A DNA stretch of 24,000 nucleotides from Paenibacillus aurantius (GCF_032268605.1 NZ_CP130318.1:3825913-3849912), one strand, 5' to 3'; positions 8,591-18,694 are shown, counted from the stretch's first letter. The notes: a model not told the origin generated them from the letters alone. Made by a program: numbers and translations.

Positions 8591-9043
8591 TCAAGCCGTG
8601 ACTTCGAATTGGATTTTGTGGATGGTTCTTTGGCGGGGATCTACGTATAGAATACCGGCCGCCTCTTCATACAGAAGATGGTAGACCAGAAGCTGGTTGC
8701 GGATTCCGCTGCCGGTCATCTCCATCGGCTGTCTCTCTCTTGCCAGCTTAACGATATATATGTTGTCCCCATCGTTGGCGAAATGATCGACGAACAGCCG
8801 GCTTTCGAGCTCCTGGTCGCCATTAAGCCGAATGCGGATCGGAACTTTGCGCTTCGTGGTCATGACTTCGTAGCCCGATTCCTCCAGGAGGGCAACGGCG
8901 TCCGTCACCGGAATTTCCTCGTCCGGCTCCACAACCCGTATCGTTTTGGGCGGGGCGGTCAGCCATTTCCGGAACAGACCGGCCAGCCAAACAAGGAGAA
9001 TAGCCACGAGAAGAAGGAATACCAGGACGTCGGCATTTTGCAT
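8591..9043 (-). CDS. hypothetical N-terminally membrane-anchored protein (150 aa), an extra gene relative to the B. subtilis order
   Basis: One N-terminal TM helix ([19 protein letters not shown]) is followed by a soluble alpha/beta-looking domain ([10 protein letters not shown]...[20 protein letters not shown]). The GGGGTGA SD lies 4 nt before the ATG. The gene ends 11 nt before argR, so co-transcription is likely. Confidence 0.6.
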
Positions 9044-9997: not shown

Positions 9998-11881
9998 TTA
10001 AGCTCTCTGGCGGGTCCGGGCCGTGAAGGACTGGATCTGCATAACCAGATTCTCAACCGTTAATCCGACTTCCTGGCGCTGCTCTTTGATGCTTCCGTGC
10101 TCTACAAAATAATCGGGAACCGCCATATTCTTAATCTGCAGCCCGTAAATTTGCTGGGAAGCATAGAATTCCAGAACCGCACTGCCGAATCCTCCGGCAA
10201 GCGATCCCTCCTCGAGCGTAACCAGGTTGTACCCTTCCTTGGCCAATTGAAGCAGCATGGCCTCGTCAAGAGGCTTGATGAAGCGGGCGTTGATCACTTT
10301 GATCGAAATGCCCTGCGGACGCAGCAGATCGGCGGCTTCCTCGGCGAGCTGAACCATCGGTCCGACCGCGAGTACGGCTGTTTTGTTTCCTTCCCGCACC
10401 ACTTCCCAGGAACCGATCGGCAAACTTCTCAGCTCGTCCTCCAGCTTGACTCCCGTTCCGTTAATCCGGGGATAACGAACGGCAATGGGGCCGTCGTTAT
10501 AATCGATCCCCGTCTTGATCATATGCCGCAGCTCGTTCTCGTCCTTGGGCATCATGATGACCATATTGGGAACATGCCTCAGAAAAGCAATATCATACAC
10601 GCCCTGGTGCGTCTCCCCATCCGGTCCGACAAAGCCGGCCCGGTCGATGGCGAACAGCACGTTCAGGTCCTGGCGGCAAATATCGTGCACCACCTGGTCG
10701 TAAGCCCGCTGAAGGAAGGTCGAGTAGACCGCATAAACCGGCTTCATTCCTTCACCGGCCATGGCCGCGCACATCGTGGCGGCGTGCTGCTCGGCGATCC
10801 CTACATCGATCATGCGTCCGGGGAATTTCTTCGCGAACTTGAGAAGCCCCGAGCCCGCCGGCATGGCCGGGGTGACCGCTACGATGCGCTCATCTTTCTC
10901 CGCCAGCTCCATGAGGGTACTGCCGAAAACATCGGTGTACATGGGAGGACCGACGGCTTTGATCATCTGGCCGGATTCGATCTTATAAGGGGAGGCCCCG
11001 TGCCAGGCGAGCGAATCCGCTTCCGCCGGGTTGTAGCCCTTCCCCTTGGTGGTGATAACATGAATCAGCACCGGGCCGTCCACGTTCTCCGCCTGCTTGA
11101 ACATTTCAAGGAGCTGTGGAATGTTATGGCCGTCGACCGGACCGAAATACTTGAACCCGAACTCTTCGAAAAGCATCCCGGATACAAGGAAATACTTCAT
11201 GCTGTCCTTAAGCCTCTCCGCTGTCTTGGCAAGCGTTCCCCCGATGGCCGGGATCTTCTTCAGCAGGTGCTCGACTTCTTCCTTGGCCTTCTTGTATGTT
11301 TTGTCCGAGCGGATCTTGCCTAAGTAATTGTGCATGGCCCCGACATTCGGAGCGATCGACATCTCGTTGTCATTCAGAATAACGGTTAGCTTCTTCTTCT
11401 CATGCCCGATGTGGTTCATGGCTTCGAAGGCCATTCCTCCGGTTAGGGCTCCGTCGCCGATAACGGCCACGACTTTGTTCGTTTCACCCTTCAGATCGCG
11501 GGCGAGCGCCATTCCCATCGCCGCAGAAAGAGACGTGCTGCTGTGCCCGGCCTCCCAGACGTCATGCTCGCTCTCGGCCTTCTTGATGAAGCCGCACAGC
11601 CCTTTGTACTGGCGCAGCGTGTCGAACCGGTCCATCCGGCCGGTCAGCATTTTGTGCACGTACGATTGATGGCCCACGTCATAAATGAATTTATCGACAG
11701 GGCTGTTAAAGTAATAATGCATCGCCAAGGTAAGCTCAACCACGCCCAGATTGGGTGCGAGGTGGCCTCCGGTCGCGGACAGCCTCTGGATCAGAAAGGT
11801 GCGGATCTCCTCCGCAAGCCCATCCAATTGTTCCACAGAAAGCTTCTTAAGATCCTCAGGCCGATTGATTTGTTCGAGCAC
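9998..11881 (-). CDS. dxs: 1-deoxy-D-xylulose-5-phosphate synthase
   Basis: The 627-aa product contains ...[45 protein letters not shown]...[18 protein letters not shown]..., the transketolase-like ThDP motifs. The GTG start at 11881 has a GGGGGA SD with 6-nt spacing. Confidence 0.95.
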
Positions 11882-12485
11882 GTTTGTTCCCCCGCTTCCC
11901 GTTCTGTGATTTCTGTTTGCGTTTAGGAGTGAAGATTCTCAGCTTGAAACGGTTCTCCAGCAAATAAAACAGCTTGCCGACCCATAAGACGATATCCGTG
12001 GCATAATGGATGGCAAATGATTTGCCCATGGCTTTGCCGCCAACGGTCAAGGCCGATACACAAGCGGTAAAGATGACGCTTACGACGGTGTTTAACAGCG
12101 CATTGTCGGAATGGATCATCAGCTTGAGAACGACCGCTGCACTGGCTGCGCCGCTTATGACACTGGAGACGTCTCCGACCACGTCGTTGCAGAAGTTCGA
12201 GAAACGGTCAGCGTTGCGAACGATATAAATCGCCTGCCGCGAGCCCTTCACCCGCTCCGAAGCCATGCCGTGAAACGGAATTTCACTGGCCGCCGCCGCG
12301 GATAAGCCTAAGATGTCAAAAAAGATTCCGGTAAGTACCAGAGAAAATACAATCAGCATGCCGATTCCCCAGGAAACCCCTTCGAGCATCGTGGTGGAAG
12401 CGACGGTAAAAATACAGGCTAATATGAAAGTGATTACCGATATAAAAATACTCCAATTAATGGAGTGTTTCAATGAAAATTTCAT
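11856..12485 (-). CDS. oapA: OLE-associated membrane protein OapA-like (209 aa, ~4 TM helices, DxxxD motif, basic C-terminal tail)
   Basis: The ATG at 12485 has a GGGGAG SD with ~7-nt spacing. The track's extension to 12632 lacks an SD and reads through structured RNA. The hydrophobic helices carry the conserved-looking [15 protein letters not shown]. The tail reads [22 protein letters not shown]. Its position directly between a long ncRNA and dxs is the documented oapA context. Confidence 0.75.
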
Positions 12486-12499
12486 TCTATTCTCCCCGA

Positions 12500-13165
12500 T
12501 AAGGTTAAAGAGTGGCAGCTTTCTGAGTAAACGCTGTGGCTTAGGTCCAGTAGGTTTTCCCAGACAGGTCACCCCAGCGTTGCCGGAGGGGCGGTTTCCC
12601 TTTACGCCCGCCTTGATGCCGTTACCGGTCATCAGACTGGATTACCACTTAGTCCACACTATAATCCCCAAAAAGCCTTACATCGAGTAAACAGTCTAGG
12701 AGTTTTCCTCTACAGCCCTGAAACCATTCCTTAGCCTCTTTTGCAAATTCGATTTCATGCAGCATCCGGCGAAAGCCTCTTTGGCCGAAGAGACTGACTC
12801 CTACCATCTGCAATCCCCTCAGAACTCACTCAAGGCAGGCTACGCTGCACACAAGTCGTTTTAGCCTCCGGCGATAAAGCATGCCGGCTTCAAGTGAGAC
12901 TCGCACTTGCAGGTTCATACCCCAAGCCGTAGCCGGGTGCACGGTGGCACAAAAGCCACGCACTTGGGCCTCCGCGGAGGCAGGGTCAACGCCCACATGC
13001 CATTGTGGATCGCCCTACTACCTTAACTCCCAGCATCAGCCCCCAACTGGGCGTTAGAAGCCAACACCAGGAACTTCATCGATGTGCCCTTTGGCGAATT
13101 TTTAGGCCCGCCTTCAGAAATGGTGGACTGACTAGAATACTGCGCCACTCACGAATAAATCGCAA
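12500..13165 (-). ncRNA. ole: OLE (ornate, large, extremophilic) RNA candidate; boundaries approximate
   Basis: About 780 nt separate ispA from oapA with no credible CDS. The region has its own strong promoter and many hand-paired helices. These include the long-range pair 13055-13048 with 12995-12988 (AACGCCCA/UGGGCGUU), and hairpins at 12937-12963, 12891-12909, 12868-12887, 12967-12982 and 12588-12612. The flanking order xseA-xseB-ispA-[RNA]-oapA-dxs is the OLE synteny. I could not run a covariance model here. Confidence 0.7.
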
Positions 13166-13170
13166 TTCTC

Positions 13171-13200
13171 ATTATACCATACGATTGGGCTCGTGCTCAA
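13171..13200 (-). promoter_or_regulatory. strong sigma-A promoter internal to the operon, driving the ncRNA and oapA
   Basis: On the minus strand, TTGAGC (13200-13195) is followed by an 18-nt spacer and TGgTATAAT, an extended consensus -10 (TATAAT at 13176-13171). Confidence 0.65.
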
Positions 13201-13205
13201 TGGAA

Positions 13206-13234
13206 CCGGCCGCCAGCGGAATCCGGGCGGCCGG
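13206..13234 (-). terminator. GC-rich hairpin just after ispA: a leaky terminator or processing/stability element
   Basis: CCGGCCGCC-(11-nt loop)-GGCGGCCGG forms a perfect 9-bp stem. On the minus strand it is followed only by the weak U-tract UUCCAUU. Confidence 0.45.
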
Positions 13235-13262
13235 CGGGAAGCGGTTGGCTCCCTAAGGTTGT

Positions 13263-14177
13263 TTAATGATCCCTTTCCATCAAATAATCCGCCAGCTGAA
13301 GAAGCCTCTCAGGACGTGCGAATCCGGCCTGTAAGACGGCGGCTTTGCCCTCATCCGTCAGCTGAGTGACTTTCGCCTGCGAGGCTTCCAGTCCCACCAG
13401 GTAAGGATAGGTCACCTTCTGCTGCTTCTCATCGCTCTTGACCGGCTTGCCGAGCTTCTGTTCATCGCCCGTCAAATCCAAGATGTCATCCTGAATTTGG
13501 AAAGCAAGTCCGATATTATACCCGAACTTCTCCAGCGCCTTAAGCTGCTGTTCCCCGGCACCCGCCGAACGGGCTCCCGCCTTCAGGGAAAAGACAATCA
13601 TATCTCCCGTTTTGTGAGTGTGGATGTACTCCAGCTGGCTCAAGTCCGTGATCCCCTGCTCGCCGATCATATCGGCGGCCTGTCCGCCCACCATTCCTTT
13701 CGGTCCGGCCAGGACGGAGAGGTCCTCGACCATGGCAAGGGCCTGCTCGGCCGGCACTCCGAACCGCCGGAAGGCTTGTACGAGCACATAGAAGGCATGG
13801 GTCAATAGACCGTCTCCCGCCAGAATGGCCATGGCTTCGCCGAAAACCTTATGATTGGTGGGCTTGCCGCGGCGGTAATCGTCATCATCCATGGCAGGCA
13901 AATCATCGTGAATGAGCGAGTAGGTGTGGACCATCTCCACCGCGCAGGCTACCGGCATGGCCGCTTCGGTTTTACCGCCAAGGGCTTCGGCTGCGGCAAG
14001 GACCAGAATCGGGCGTAGTCTTTTGCCCCCGGCGAGCAAAGAGTACTTCATGGCTTCTCTTAAGGGAGAAGGAATGCTCCACGTTTCCGGAATCATCGCG
14101 AGCATTTCCTTTTCGACCGTCAAGGCGGTGGTCTTGATGTATTGTTGTATAGTATCCGTCGTATTCAAGTCATTCAT
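13263..14177 (-). CDS. ispA: farnesyl/geranyl diphosphate synthase (polyprenyl synthetase)
   Basis: The first Asp-rich motif (LIHDDLPAMDDDDYRRG) and the second (FQIQDDILD) are both present. The ATG at 14177 overlaps the xseB TGA in an ATGA junction. The track's extension to 14279 is rejected. Confidence 0.93.
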   Translation of the reverse strand: MNDLNTTDTIQQYIKTTALTVEKEMLAMIPETWSIPSPLREAMKYSLLAGGKRLRPILVLAAAEALGGKTEAAMPVACAVEMVHTYSLIHDDLPAMDDDDYRRGKPTNHKVFGEAMAILAGDGLLTHAFYVLVQAFRRFGVPAEQALAMVEDLSVLAGPKGMVGGQAADMIGEQGITDLSQLEYIHTHKTGDMIVFSLKAGARSAGAGEQQLKALEKFGYNIGLAFQIQDDILDLTGDEQKLGKPVKSDEKQQKVTYPYLVGLEASQAKVTQLTDEGKAAVLQAGFARPERLLQLADYLMERDH

Positions 14178-14419
14178 CCTTCGTCCGTTCCGGCTTGGAA
14201 CGGTTTTTTGGTTAGGCTTCCGTTCTCTTCGACGAGCATCTCGATCTTCCGCTCCACCAGCTCCAGCTTCTGCCCGCATAGATGAGACAGCTTCATGCCC
14301 TCCTGAAACAGCTCGATCGCCTTCTCCAGCTCGACATCACCGCTTTCGAGAAGCGAGACGATCTCCTCCAGCTTTTCCATGGCCGCTTCGAAACTGATGG
14401 TTTCTTTATCGGTTGTCAT
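14174..14419 (-). CDS. xseB: exodeoxyribonuclease VII small subunit
   Basis: The product reads MTTDKETISFEAAMEKLEEIVSLLESGDVELEKAIELFQEGMKLSHLCGQKLE... The ATG at 14419 has a GGAGGA SD with 8-nt spacing. At 81 aa it matches XseB in length. Confidence 0.9.
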   Translation of the reverse strand: MTTDKETISFEAAMEKLEEIVSLLESGDVELEKAIELFQEGMKLSHLCGQKLELVERKIEMLVEENGSLTKKPFQAGTDEG

Positions 14420-17607: not shown

Positions 17608-18168
17608 CTATTCCACTCTGCTTTTGAACGTGTGGGCATTCTGGACGACGTTCGCGACATAAACCGAAACGTTCGCCACCGGTATTCCCGTAATCTCTTC
17701 GATATGCTCCTTAACCGCAGCCTGAATCTCCTCGGTCATAACCGGTATGGAGGTTTCCCCGTCCACGATGGTGCGGATCTCAATATCGAGTCCCGCCTGG
17801 ATGACCTTGACCCGTGATTTCAAATCCTTCACGCCGCGCGTACGTCCGGCCGATTTCAGGGCCAGGTTCTCCACCGTTTCCATGGAAATGCGGATATCTC
17901 CAAATTCCGTGCGCTGGTCAATCGATGGAGCATGACCGCCTCCCGTACGGACCGCAAGGATGAGCATCCGGACGGCGATGAGCAGCAGGATCACCGAGCA
18001 GGTAATGAAAGCGACCGCAGTGGCTTCATCCCGGTATACGTTGATCAGGAAGGCGTTGGCGGTATCATAGGGAATGAGGCCAAAGGCCGACAATAACAAA
18101 CTGACCAGGGCAATGATGCTGGCAAGACTGAATAACAATAACAGGAACCTGTCGAAGAATTTGGCCAC
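17608..18168 (-). CDS. amaP: alkaline shock response membrane anchor protein AmaP
   Basis: The 186-aa product has two N-terminal TM helices followed by an Asp23-like soluble domain. It lies immediately downstream of an Asp23-family gene. Confidence 0.7.
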   Translation of the reverse strand: MAKFFDRFLLLLFSLASIIALVSLLLSAFGLIPYDTANAFLINVYRDEATAVAFITCSVILLLIAVRMLILAVRTGGGHAPSIDQRTEFGDIRISMETVENLALKSAGRTRGVKDLKSRVKVIQAGLDIEIRTIVDGETSIPVMTEEIQAAVKEHIEEITGIPVANVSVYVANVVQNAHTFKSRVE

Positions 18169-18197
18169 GACTGCTTGTCTCCTTCCCGGATTAGAGG

Positions 18198-18222
18198 AAA
18201 CCCCCTATGGGGTAGGGGGTTT
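18198..18222 (-). other. perfect 10-bp intercistronic hairpin between asp23 and amaP
   Basis: AAACCCCCTA-TGGGG-TAGGGGGTTT. On the minus strand it is followed by UUUCCUCU, so it could be an attenuator or an mRNA stability element. Confidence 0.5.
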
Positions 18223-18283
18223 GCCGTCTTGCTATAGGCCTGTCAGTCCAAGCCGGGCGCCCCCCGGACGGACGAAAGGCTGC

Positions 18284-18694
18284 TTATTTCACTCGGATGG
18301 CCGTAGGGTCTTCTTCGATCGGCTTCTCCATTCCTTTGAAGTGGACGTCATGGATATGGACGTTCACTTCCACCACGTCAAGCCCGGTCATGGATTCGAT
18401 GGCGCGCTTCACATTGTCTTGGATTTCCCCTGCCACCTCGGGAATTTTGTATCCATATTCAATAATAATATTCACATCAACCGCAGCTTCCCGCTGGCCT
18501 ACTTCCACCTTGACGCCTTTGGAGAGGTTCTTGCGACCCAGCAGCTCGGCAATTCCTCCCGCGAAGCCGCCGCTCATTCCGGCAACCCCTCTTACTTCAA
18601 CGGCAGCCAGTCCGGCAATGACCTCGATAACCTCGGGGGCGATTTGAATATGGCCCATTTCCGTTTTCTCGTAATCCGGGATAATCGTACTCAT
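18284..18694 (-). CDS. yqhY: Asp23/Gls24-family envelope stress protein (YqhY-like)
   Basis: The 136-aa product contains IAPEVIEVIAGLAAVEVRGVAGMSGG...GVKVEVGQREAAVDVNIIIEYGYKIPEVAGEIQDNVKRAIESMTGL, the DUF322/Asp23 pattern. It also matches YqhY in position, between accC and nusB. Confidence 0.88.
   Translation of the reverse strand: MSTIIPDYEKTEMGHIQIAPEVIEVIAGLAAVEVRGVAGMSGGFAGGIAELLGRKNLSKGVKVEVGQREAAVDVNIIIEYGYKIPEVAGEIQDNVKRAIESMTGLDVVEVNVHIHDVHFKGMEKPIEEDPTAIRVK

Follow-up and report, generated by a model that had tools for sequence, protein, structure and literature searches.

A typical full-length OLE RNA gene lies between ispA and oapA in Paenibacillus aurantius

We analysed a 24-kb stretch of the Paenibacillus aurantius genome (NZ_CP130318.1:3825913-3849912; hereafter the window, by which we mean the whole 24,000 nucleotides, with positions counted from the first letter), the minus strand of which carries the gene order nusB-folD-xseA-xseB-ispA-ole-oapA-dxs-tlyA-(unknown 150 aa)-argR-recN. 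The subject of the present analysis is the interval between the ispA stop codon (13263-13265) and the start codon of oapA (ATG at 12485), which measures 777 nucleotides (nt) and harbors a gene (ole) for an OLE RNA, followed on the same strand, after an 11-nt gap, by the gene of a membrane protein of 209 amino acids (aa). OLE (ornate, large, extremophilic) RNA was first described in 2006 (Breaker laboratory) and is curated in Rfam. An earlier reading of this DNA, made from the sequence by itself (the original prediction), had put the gap between the ispA stop and the next start supported by a Shine-Dalgarno (SD) sequence at ~780 nt and had listed the same succession of genes; both statements are accurate, save that the additional 150-aa gene between tlyA and argR had been missed. 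The coordinates of the features discussed below are collected in Table 1.

Table 1. Position and basis of the features of the ole-oapA locus (window coordinates)
Feature	Position	Strand	Basis and remarks
ole, OLE RNA gene, full-length type, 669 nt	12496..13164	-	RF01071 and covariation, 76 homologs
sigma-A-type promoter of ole	13171..13200	-	10/12 consensus matches and extended -10 TG
P1	13150-13144 (GAGUGGC) with 12516-12510	-	98.3% paired, 3 covarying pairs
P2	13143-13132 (GCAGU..CUAG) with 12699-12691	-	100% paired
P4a hairpin, GGCGGG-CCUAAAAA-UUCGCC	13112-13093	-	identical to Rfam consensus
J4a/5, AAAGGGCACAUCGAUGAAG, kink-turn (k-turn) 5' strand recognised by OapC	13092-13074	-	identical to consensus, invariant in the alignment of 76 copies (A1)
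domain-1 helices P5-P9	12734..13073	-	consensus pairs and compensatory changes
P5, loop GCCCA	13073-13027	-	Rfam consensus, covariation
P6	13022-12976	-	Rfam consensus, covariation
P7	12968-12921	-	Rfam consensus, covariation
P8	12912-12845	-	Rfam consensus, covariation
P8-tip insertion, 40 nt vs 2 consensus positions	12858..12897	-	with local hairpin CCGGC...GCCGG
P9	12836-12734	-	Rfam consensus, covariation
L9.3 loop CGGCCA with GGCC palindrome	12782..12787	-	putative kissing loop, dimer bridge B3
closed 3' domain (domain 2, P11/P12 to P15)	12517..12677	-	consensus and covariation
P13, UGAUG-A-CCG GUAA CGG CAUCA, GNRA tetraloop and 1-nt bulge	12634-12614	-	predicted OapB-site features
P14.1 GCAA loop	12583-12580	-	Rfam consensus
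oapA, 209-aa membrane protein	11856..12485	-	SD GGGGAGA 12497-12491; DVVGD codons 12185-12171; basic C-terminal tail
dxs, 1-deoxy-D-xylulose-5-phosphate synthase, GTG start	9998..11881	-	TIGR00204 918 bits; Pfam DXP_synthase_N from residue 2
ispA, farnesyl diphosphate synthase	13263..14180	-	NF045485 FPPsyn 401.6 bits

When the whole window was scanned against Rfam 15, its minus strand yielded a match to RF01071 (OLE) at 13164-12496 that scored 508.7 bits (gathering score 50, E 1e-146) and spanned model positions 1-616 of 616, i.e. without truncation. The original prediction had named the locus an OLE representative, had given the accession RF01071 and had pointed to the minus strand for a covariance-model check; the accession proves to be that of the OLE model, and the full-length match bears the proposal out. 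Its description of the host as a spore-former is likewise reasonable, since P. aurantius (Paenibacillaceae) is a member of the Bacillota, in agreement with the Bacillota part of the OLE host range, and the window contains spoIIIA, spoIVB and spo0A. Among the traits by which OLE membership is judged, the window RNA shows a length of the order of ~600 nt, some 25 base-paired substructures backed by covariation, and a fraction of nearly invariant nucleotides of at least the usual ~25%. We regard it as practically certain that 13164-12496 (-) is the ole gene of P. aurantius and specifies a full-length OLE RNA of ~650-670 nt. It is a typical full-length copy from a well-described family, of the kind that a routine database search detects, and as such is already known. 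A GTDB-based survey of OLE comprised 2,846 assemblies (PMC11332333), and the literature searched, including the supplement of that survey, contained nothing on Paenibacillus in connection with OLE RNA.

The fold was assessed on 80 related loci, fetched via the downstream protein from species-representative genomes and covering Paenibacillaceae, Bacillaceae, Thermoactinomycetaceae and unclassified Bacillota. By nhmmer with the window RNA, 79 of the 80 were found to carry an OLE next to the OapA homolog, on its upstream side (the exception, L078, offers only 352 nt of sequence there), and 76 full-length copies were aligned (alignment A1) and scored against the Rfam consensus structure supplemented with the long-range helices P1 and P2 (the assignment of published helix names to the Rfam helices is ours). 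Across A1, the 26 helices are 90.6% paired, both partners have changed in 115 of 175 pairs, and the covariation score amounts to 0.359, as compared to 0.172 for column shuffles (0/500 as high) and 0.08-0.10 for controls in which the partners were slid by 1-3 columns. Compensatory changes are present in helices 5-17 (domain-1 region), and helices 20-26 (domain-2 region) are 88-100% paired with many double changes. Invariant positions account for 198 of 669 (30%, which is an upper estimate because the 76-homolog sample is narrower than the whole OLE family), and 245 of 669 are conserved at a level of at least 97%. With the Rfam structure projected on the window RNA, 146 of its 159 consensus pairs (92%) are canonical, and the single-sequence minimum free energy (MFE) of -257.6 kcal/mol (z -2.35) was equalled by 0 of 20 dinucleotide shuffles.

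Conservation is pronounced in the P4a-J4a/5 region (positions 75-91), which is invariant or nearly so in the 76 sequences, and A1 shows no variation in the CUAG palindrome, which sits in P2, or in the A-rich P4a loop; the palindromes bound by OapA lie in or near P2 and P4a (PMC12265935). The OapC k-turn is formed at J4a/5 with J6/7 (PMC9723947, PMC12286853), and J6/7 of the window RNA (CCGCGGAG vs the consensus CCGUGGAG) would provide, together with J4a/5, strands that appear capable of such a turn. Binding of OapB needs a GNRA loop together with a bulge of one nucleotide in P13 (PMC7936274), and P13 of the window RNA has both. The P5-P9 region corresponds approximately to the part seen by cryo-EM as a homodimer, and palindromes in L9.3 (GGCC, GAUC or AGCU) back an intermolecular kissing loop (PMC12286853). 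The RNA shares its conserved core nucleotides and its linkage to oapA with OLE variants 1 (TANB77) and 2 (RF39) (PMC11332333); unlike these two, it has P7-P9 of full length, which assigns it to the predominant full-length type. Its only notable departure from the Rfam consensus is the 40-nt insertion in P8. Expansions of the P8 tip, variable in length and sequence, occur in most Paenibacillaceae homologs, and the J6/7-P8 region is known for phylogenetic variation (PMC12265935, Fig. 1 legend).

The original prediction had depicted the region as packed with helices paired by hand. Its general claim of a densely structured RNA holds and several of the specific pairings do not: taken as a set, the hand-drawn helices are 75.9% paired in A1, with a covariation score of 0.113 vs 0.103 for shuffles. 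The 8-bp pair 13055-13048/12995-12988 (AACGCCCA/UGGGCGUU) is Watson-Crick at 8/8 positions here and lacks covariation, being uninformative because its core is invariant; its 3' strand overlaps that of the consensus P6 helix and, where it varies, covaries with its P6 partner (columns 161:172 read AU in 44, GC in 25 and GU in 7 sequences), and the columns that would join it to its partner in the L5 loop (119:172) are unpaired in 25 sequences. The hairpin at 12937-12963 (GUGGC/GCCAC), which is also present in the single-sequence MFE fold, is beaten by the consensus P7 pairing with 12933-12927 (CG 32 / UA 22 in P7 columns 216:303, vs CG 28 / UG 25 in hairpin columns 216:272). The one at 12967-12982 occupies the consensus P6 strand and the conserved J6/7, and the site of a further hairpin (12868-12887) falls within the clade-specific 40-nt insertion. 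A closed 3' domain does exist, spanning 12677-12517 rather than the 12655-12505 first drawn.

As a family, OapA proteins bind OLE RNA 2:1 and recruit it to the membrane, and PM1 is reportedly a DxxxD mutant of Halalkalibacterium (Bacillus) halodurans OapA. The protein encoded downstream of ole in P. aurantius is 100% identical to MJA45_17325 (1455 homologs), which is labelled ‘hypothetical protein’ by NCBI and ‘CNNM transmembrane domain-containing protein’ in UniRef. It has hydrophobic segments at residues ~13-31, 41-59, 102-124 and 130-148, a DVVGD motif at residues 101-105 (D101, G104 and D105 are invariant in 81/81 homologs, within the block NFCNDV[VI]GD), and a tail with 11 K/R and 0 D/E in its last 30 residues; the 209 aa, the ~4 transmembrane helices, the DVVGD motif and the strongly basic tail had all been described correctly beforehand. 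In Pfam it matches CNNM/DUF21 (PF01595) alone, at 19.7 bits and under the cut-off of 28.4, and no NCBIfam model matches it. A sequence search of the PDB returned chance coiled-coil matches to coronavirus spike alone (E at least 0.04) and a PDB profile search with a 64-sequence OapA profile returned nothing, so that the link to CNNM needed a comparison of folds. An all-helical AlphaFold2 model built with 64 homologs had as its five best PDB fold matches (Foldseek) 7M1T_B, 7M1T_A, 7CFG, 7M1U and 7CFF, i.e. the archaeal CNNM transporter MtCorB (7M1T, 7M1U) and the transmembrane domain of bacterial CorC (7CFG, 7CFF), with a probability of 0.98-1.00 and a similarity that is weak by other measures (TM-score 0.41-0.53, E 6e-3 to 0.27, for a model with a mean pLDDT, the predicted local distance difference test, of 73). 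OapA of H. halodurans was published as weakly homologous to CNNM, as structurally closest to CorB (7M1U) and as having a DxxxD motif, which is absent from CNNM domains (PMC11332333). The 209-aa protein of the window shows the published hallmarks of OapA (~200 aa, four segments, DxxxD, a sub-threshold CNNM match, a CorB/CorC fold), and its initial naming as OapA stands. The nearest alkaliphilic relatives among the homologs retrieved come from Alkalihalobacterium (L046) and Alteribacter (L043), with 51-57% identity.

The predicted transmembrane fold is what OapA has in common with MpfA, CorB and CorC (PF01595), and CNNM is its only sequence-family match. Unlike CNNM transporters, it is devoid of CBS-pair and CorC/HlyC domains and carries the DxxxD motif and the basic tail. 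The architecture of CNNM, CBS pair and CorC is absent, as there are no other domains and 209 aa leave no room for them. On account of the sub-threshold score, the lacking domains, and the DxxxD motif and tail, OapA is not a CNNM member as Pfam defines it.

Open reading frames (ORFs) that touch the ispA-oapA gap raise the alternative that the region is protein-coding. The oapA frame stays open upstream to an ATG at 12632 (258 aa, 11856-12632), and the plus strand contains ORFs of 83 aa (13005-13256) and 125 aa (12313-12690); the original prediction had noticed the antisense 83-aa frame and had called it the only one, which overlooked two further ORFs that likewise exist mechanically. Some metagenome gene callers do report OapA homologs of 261-266 aa. 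On the other hand, the extension lacks conservation (in the 80 loci, the open part of the frame ahead of the start has a median length of 12.5 codons, range 0-70), a strong SD precedes the ATG at 12485, NCBI and most callers give ~209 aa, and the substitutions in the region follow base-pair covariation and are not codon-like. We rejected the 258-aa extension as not real and both antisense ORFs as coding, and protein-coding capacity can for practical purposes be dismissed as an explanation of the region. The long metagenome (JGI) calls (P0008, P0018, P0026, P0032, P0035 and P0037, 261-266 aa vs ~210) are N-terminal over-extensions into the OLE 3' domain, like the 258-aa ORF.

The OLE RNA is preceded by a promoter composed of a -35 element TTGAGC (13200-13195), an 18-nt spacer, a TG at 13179-13178 and a -10 hexamer TATAAT (13176-13171), with a predicted transcription start near 13164. 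A near-consensus extended -10 at the beginning of the region had been seen originally, and the arrangement TTGAGC-18-TGgTATAAT confirms it. Promoter-like sites number 4 in the 1.7-kb region vs 1.1 expected from shuffles. Upstream of OLE, a TGn-extended -10 occurs in 76/76 loci from three families (a perfect TATAAT in 70/76), usually with 12-18 nt between its end and the conserved GAGUGG of P1, and a -35 with at least 4/6 matches at a spacing of 17-18 nt accompanies it in 54/76, TTGAGC being the commonest form. Such conservation of the extended -10 is unusually strict for a promoter and is consistent with very high constitutive expression. The conserved promoter agrees with data from B. halodurans, where OLE has its own active proximal promoter, which raises expression >100-fold (PMC3413148). 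A separate observation is a GC-rich inverted repeat (CCGGCCGCC-11 nt-GGCGGCCGG, 13206-13234 (-)) located past the ispA stop and ahead of the ole -35 element. It is not followed by a U-tract, was not called by the terminator scan, and might serve to insulate the end of the ispA transcript or to make it more stable.

The same promoter feeds an alternative in which the region is only a cis-acting 5' leader (a riboswitch-like or stabilising untranslated region) of the oapA-dxs mRNA and not a free-standing RNA. The terminator scan found no terminator-like site between ole and oapA, the final 2 nt of the Rfam match already belong to the oapA SD, and the end of oapA and the GTG start of dxs have 26 nt in common (11856-11881 (-)). 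With a promoter directly upstream, no terminator and these overlaps, one transcript probably covers ole-oapA-dxs; the 26-nt overlap suggests co-transcription and translational coupling, by which OapA translation would be linked to that of the first enzyme of the methylerythritol phosphate (MEP) isoprenoid pathway. Co-transcription is nevertheless compatible with a role in trans, and the B. halodurans RNA is a stable ~600-nt species with a half-life of ~3 h that localises to the membrane and whose deletion has phenotypes of its own (PMC3413148, PMC12265935). Moreover, the loci differ in how far the P1 3' strand (the OLE 3' end) lies from the oapA start, from 5 to 185 nt, and this spread argues against a fixed expression platform. 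We consider the leader explanation unlikely and favor a free-standing OLE RNA, for which, without a terminator ahead of oapA, the mature 3' end would arise from processing or from the stability of the structured core. Transcription from the ole promoter likely runs on into oapA-dxs, with the stable RNA core being released or persisting through processing.

In comparison to the experimentally studied OLE/OapA system of H. halodurans C-125, the P. aurantius locus, known from its sequence, has the same full-length architecture, proximal promoter, oapA immediately downstream, DxxxD motif, GNRA loop and 1-nt bulge in P13, GNRA loop in P14.1, conserved J4a/5 strand, and a neighborhood of isoprenoid, DNA-repair and translation genes. 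It differs in a host that is not a documented extremophile, in the 40-nt P8 insertion, and in the nucleotides of P13 (GUAA loop and A bulge vs GUGA and U in H. halodurans) and P14.1 (GCAA vs GCGA). With the C. acetobutylicum OLE RNA (577 nt, cryo-EM homodimer, PMC12286853) it shares the A-rich P4a loop, L5 GCCCA, L6 and L9.3 GGCC, putative elements of a dimer, and it is ~90 nt longer, mainly by expansions of P7 and P8.

Cells of B. halodurans accumulate OLE in the form of one stable RNA of ~600 nt (half-life ~3 h), which is induced by ethanol and has knockout phenotypes (PMC3413148), binds proteins and localises to membranes (PMC12265935). By analogy with H. halodurans and C. acetobutylicum, the P. 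aurantius OLE would accumulate as a stable, discrete RNA and dimerise; OapA dimers would bind near P2 and P4a and tether it to the membrane, OapB (at P13/P12.2) and OapC with bS21 (at the k-turn region) would possibly join and shape the RNA, and the resulting ribonucleoprotein would aid in the tolerance of short-chain alcohols, cold, excess Mg2+ and poor carbon sources (PMC12265935). The likeliest mechanism in this scheme would be that a CNNM-like divalent-cation transporter has OLE as its sensor or its regulatory part, in place of the CBS and CorC domains of MpfA/CorB. Since OapA resembles a bare CNNM-like module and OLE anticorrelates with MpfA, the RNA would supply the regulatory functions of CBS and CorC and in this way modulate the flux of divalent cations. 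This mechanism is the field's leading hypothesis, inferred even for the model organism, and is much less certain than the identity of the RNA.

Several points weigh against the assignment or against its extension to function. Apart from the missing terminator, the weak fold matches of OapA and the inferred status of the regulatory mechanism, the ole locus of P. aurantius is documented at the level of sequence. The species is not documented as an extremophile or anaerobe (a distribution trait of OLE hosts that is not strictly defining), and 13 consensus pairs, mostly in P6, the P7 tip, P9.3 and P14.1, are non-canonical. For the partner genes oapB and oapC the analysis covered the 24-kb window, which contains neither of them. 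Given that OapB (YbzG-like) occurs in ~60% and OapC (YbxF) in ~45% of OLE hosts, these partner genes are not obligatory for membership. The host and the non-canonical pairs could be read as signs that ole is a decaying, non-functional relic in a mesophilic aerobe, a reading to which the large internal deletion in the ole of P. suaedae (L027) also lends itself. Against decay stand the full-length 508.7-bit match, the 92% of pairs that are canonical, the retention of all family-invariant nucleotides, the compensatory changes among close relatives, the intact promoter and oapA, and the conservation of the whole unit in dozens of Paenibacillaceae species, and we deem a relic very improbable as compared to a functional full-length OLE RNA.

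The shortened gene in P. suaedae chi10 (L027:3585-3955, NZ_JAVYAA010000001.1; 371 nt, Rfam 238 bits) is a single instance. Its J4a/5 (AAAGGGCAC) is fused to GGCCAAAG of the L9.3 loop, with the loss of model positions ~83-370, which comprise P5-P9 and most of the domain 1 resolved by cryo-EM. What is kept includes the TGATATAAT promoter, P1, P2, P4a, domain 2 and an intact oapA, and no Ns occur in the sequence. Its origin may lie in a mini-OLE that exists in nature, in a deletion that inactivated the gene recently, or in a fault of the assembly. If the short form were genuine, the domain through which OLE dimerises in cryo-EM would be dispensable for at least part of OLE function.

A second observation in its own right is the conserved 150-aa ORF in the tlyA/argR interval (8591-9043 (-)). 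It has a hydrophobic helix at its N terminus, and neither Pfam nor NCBIfam yields a match; with tblastn, 49 of the 80 OLE loci, Thermoactinomycetaceae among them, proved to have it at the matching site downstream of tlyA. This membrane-anchored protein might be an additional partner of the OLE particle. That the Paenibacillaceae (for the most part aerobic, mesophilic bacteria of soil) have an OLE particle peculiar to their lineage, an idea prompted by the expanded P8, the 150-aa protein and the P. suaedae deletion, strikes us as an improbable conjecture.

The wider neighborhood contains, ahead of nusB, spoIIIAE-AF-(AG)-AH, accB, accC and two adjacent Asp23-family (yqhY-like) genes (17608-18694 (-)), yqhY being reported in the literature among the genes commonest near ole. 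After recN follow spoIVB, spo0A and then a c-di-AMP riboswitch (RF00379, 2006-2151 (-), 75 bits vs 38), which lies immediately upstream of the gene of a 271-aa protein (1976-1161) with Cu_amine_oxidN1 and NlpC/P60 cell-wall hydrolase domains.

Scientifically, a typical full-length member of a known family adds little, and for tests of OLE function the P. aurantius locus offers no advantage over the model organisms already in use. The naming of ole and oapA mends the ‘hypothetical’ and CNNM labels and the gene calls that extend into the RNA, and the comparative set reveals a universally conserved extended -10 promoter of OLE. For the family as a whole the finding is of modest value, as a further data point for the frequent occurrence of OLE in Paenibacillaceae, a family that does not belong to the classic extremophiles.

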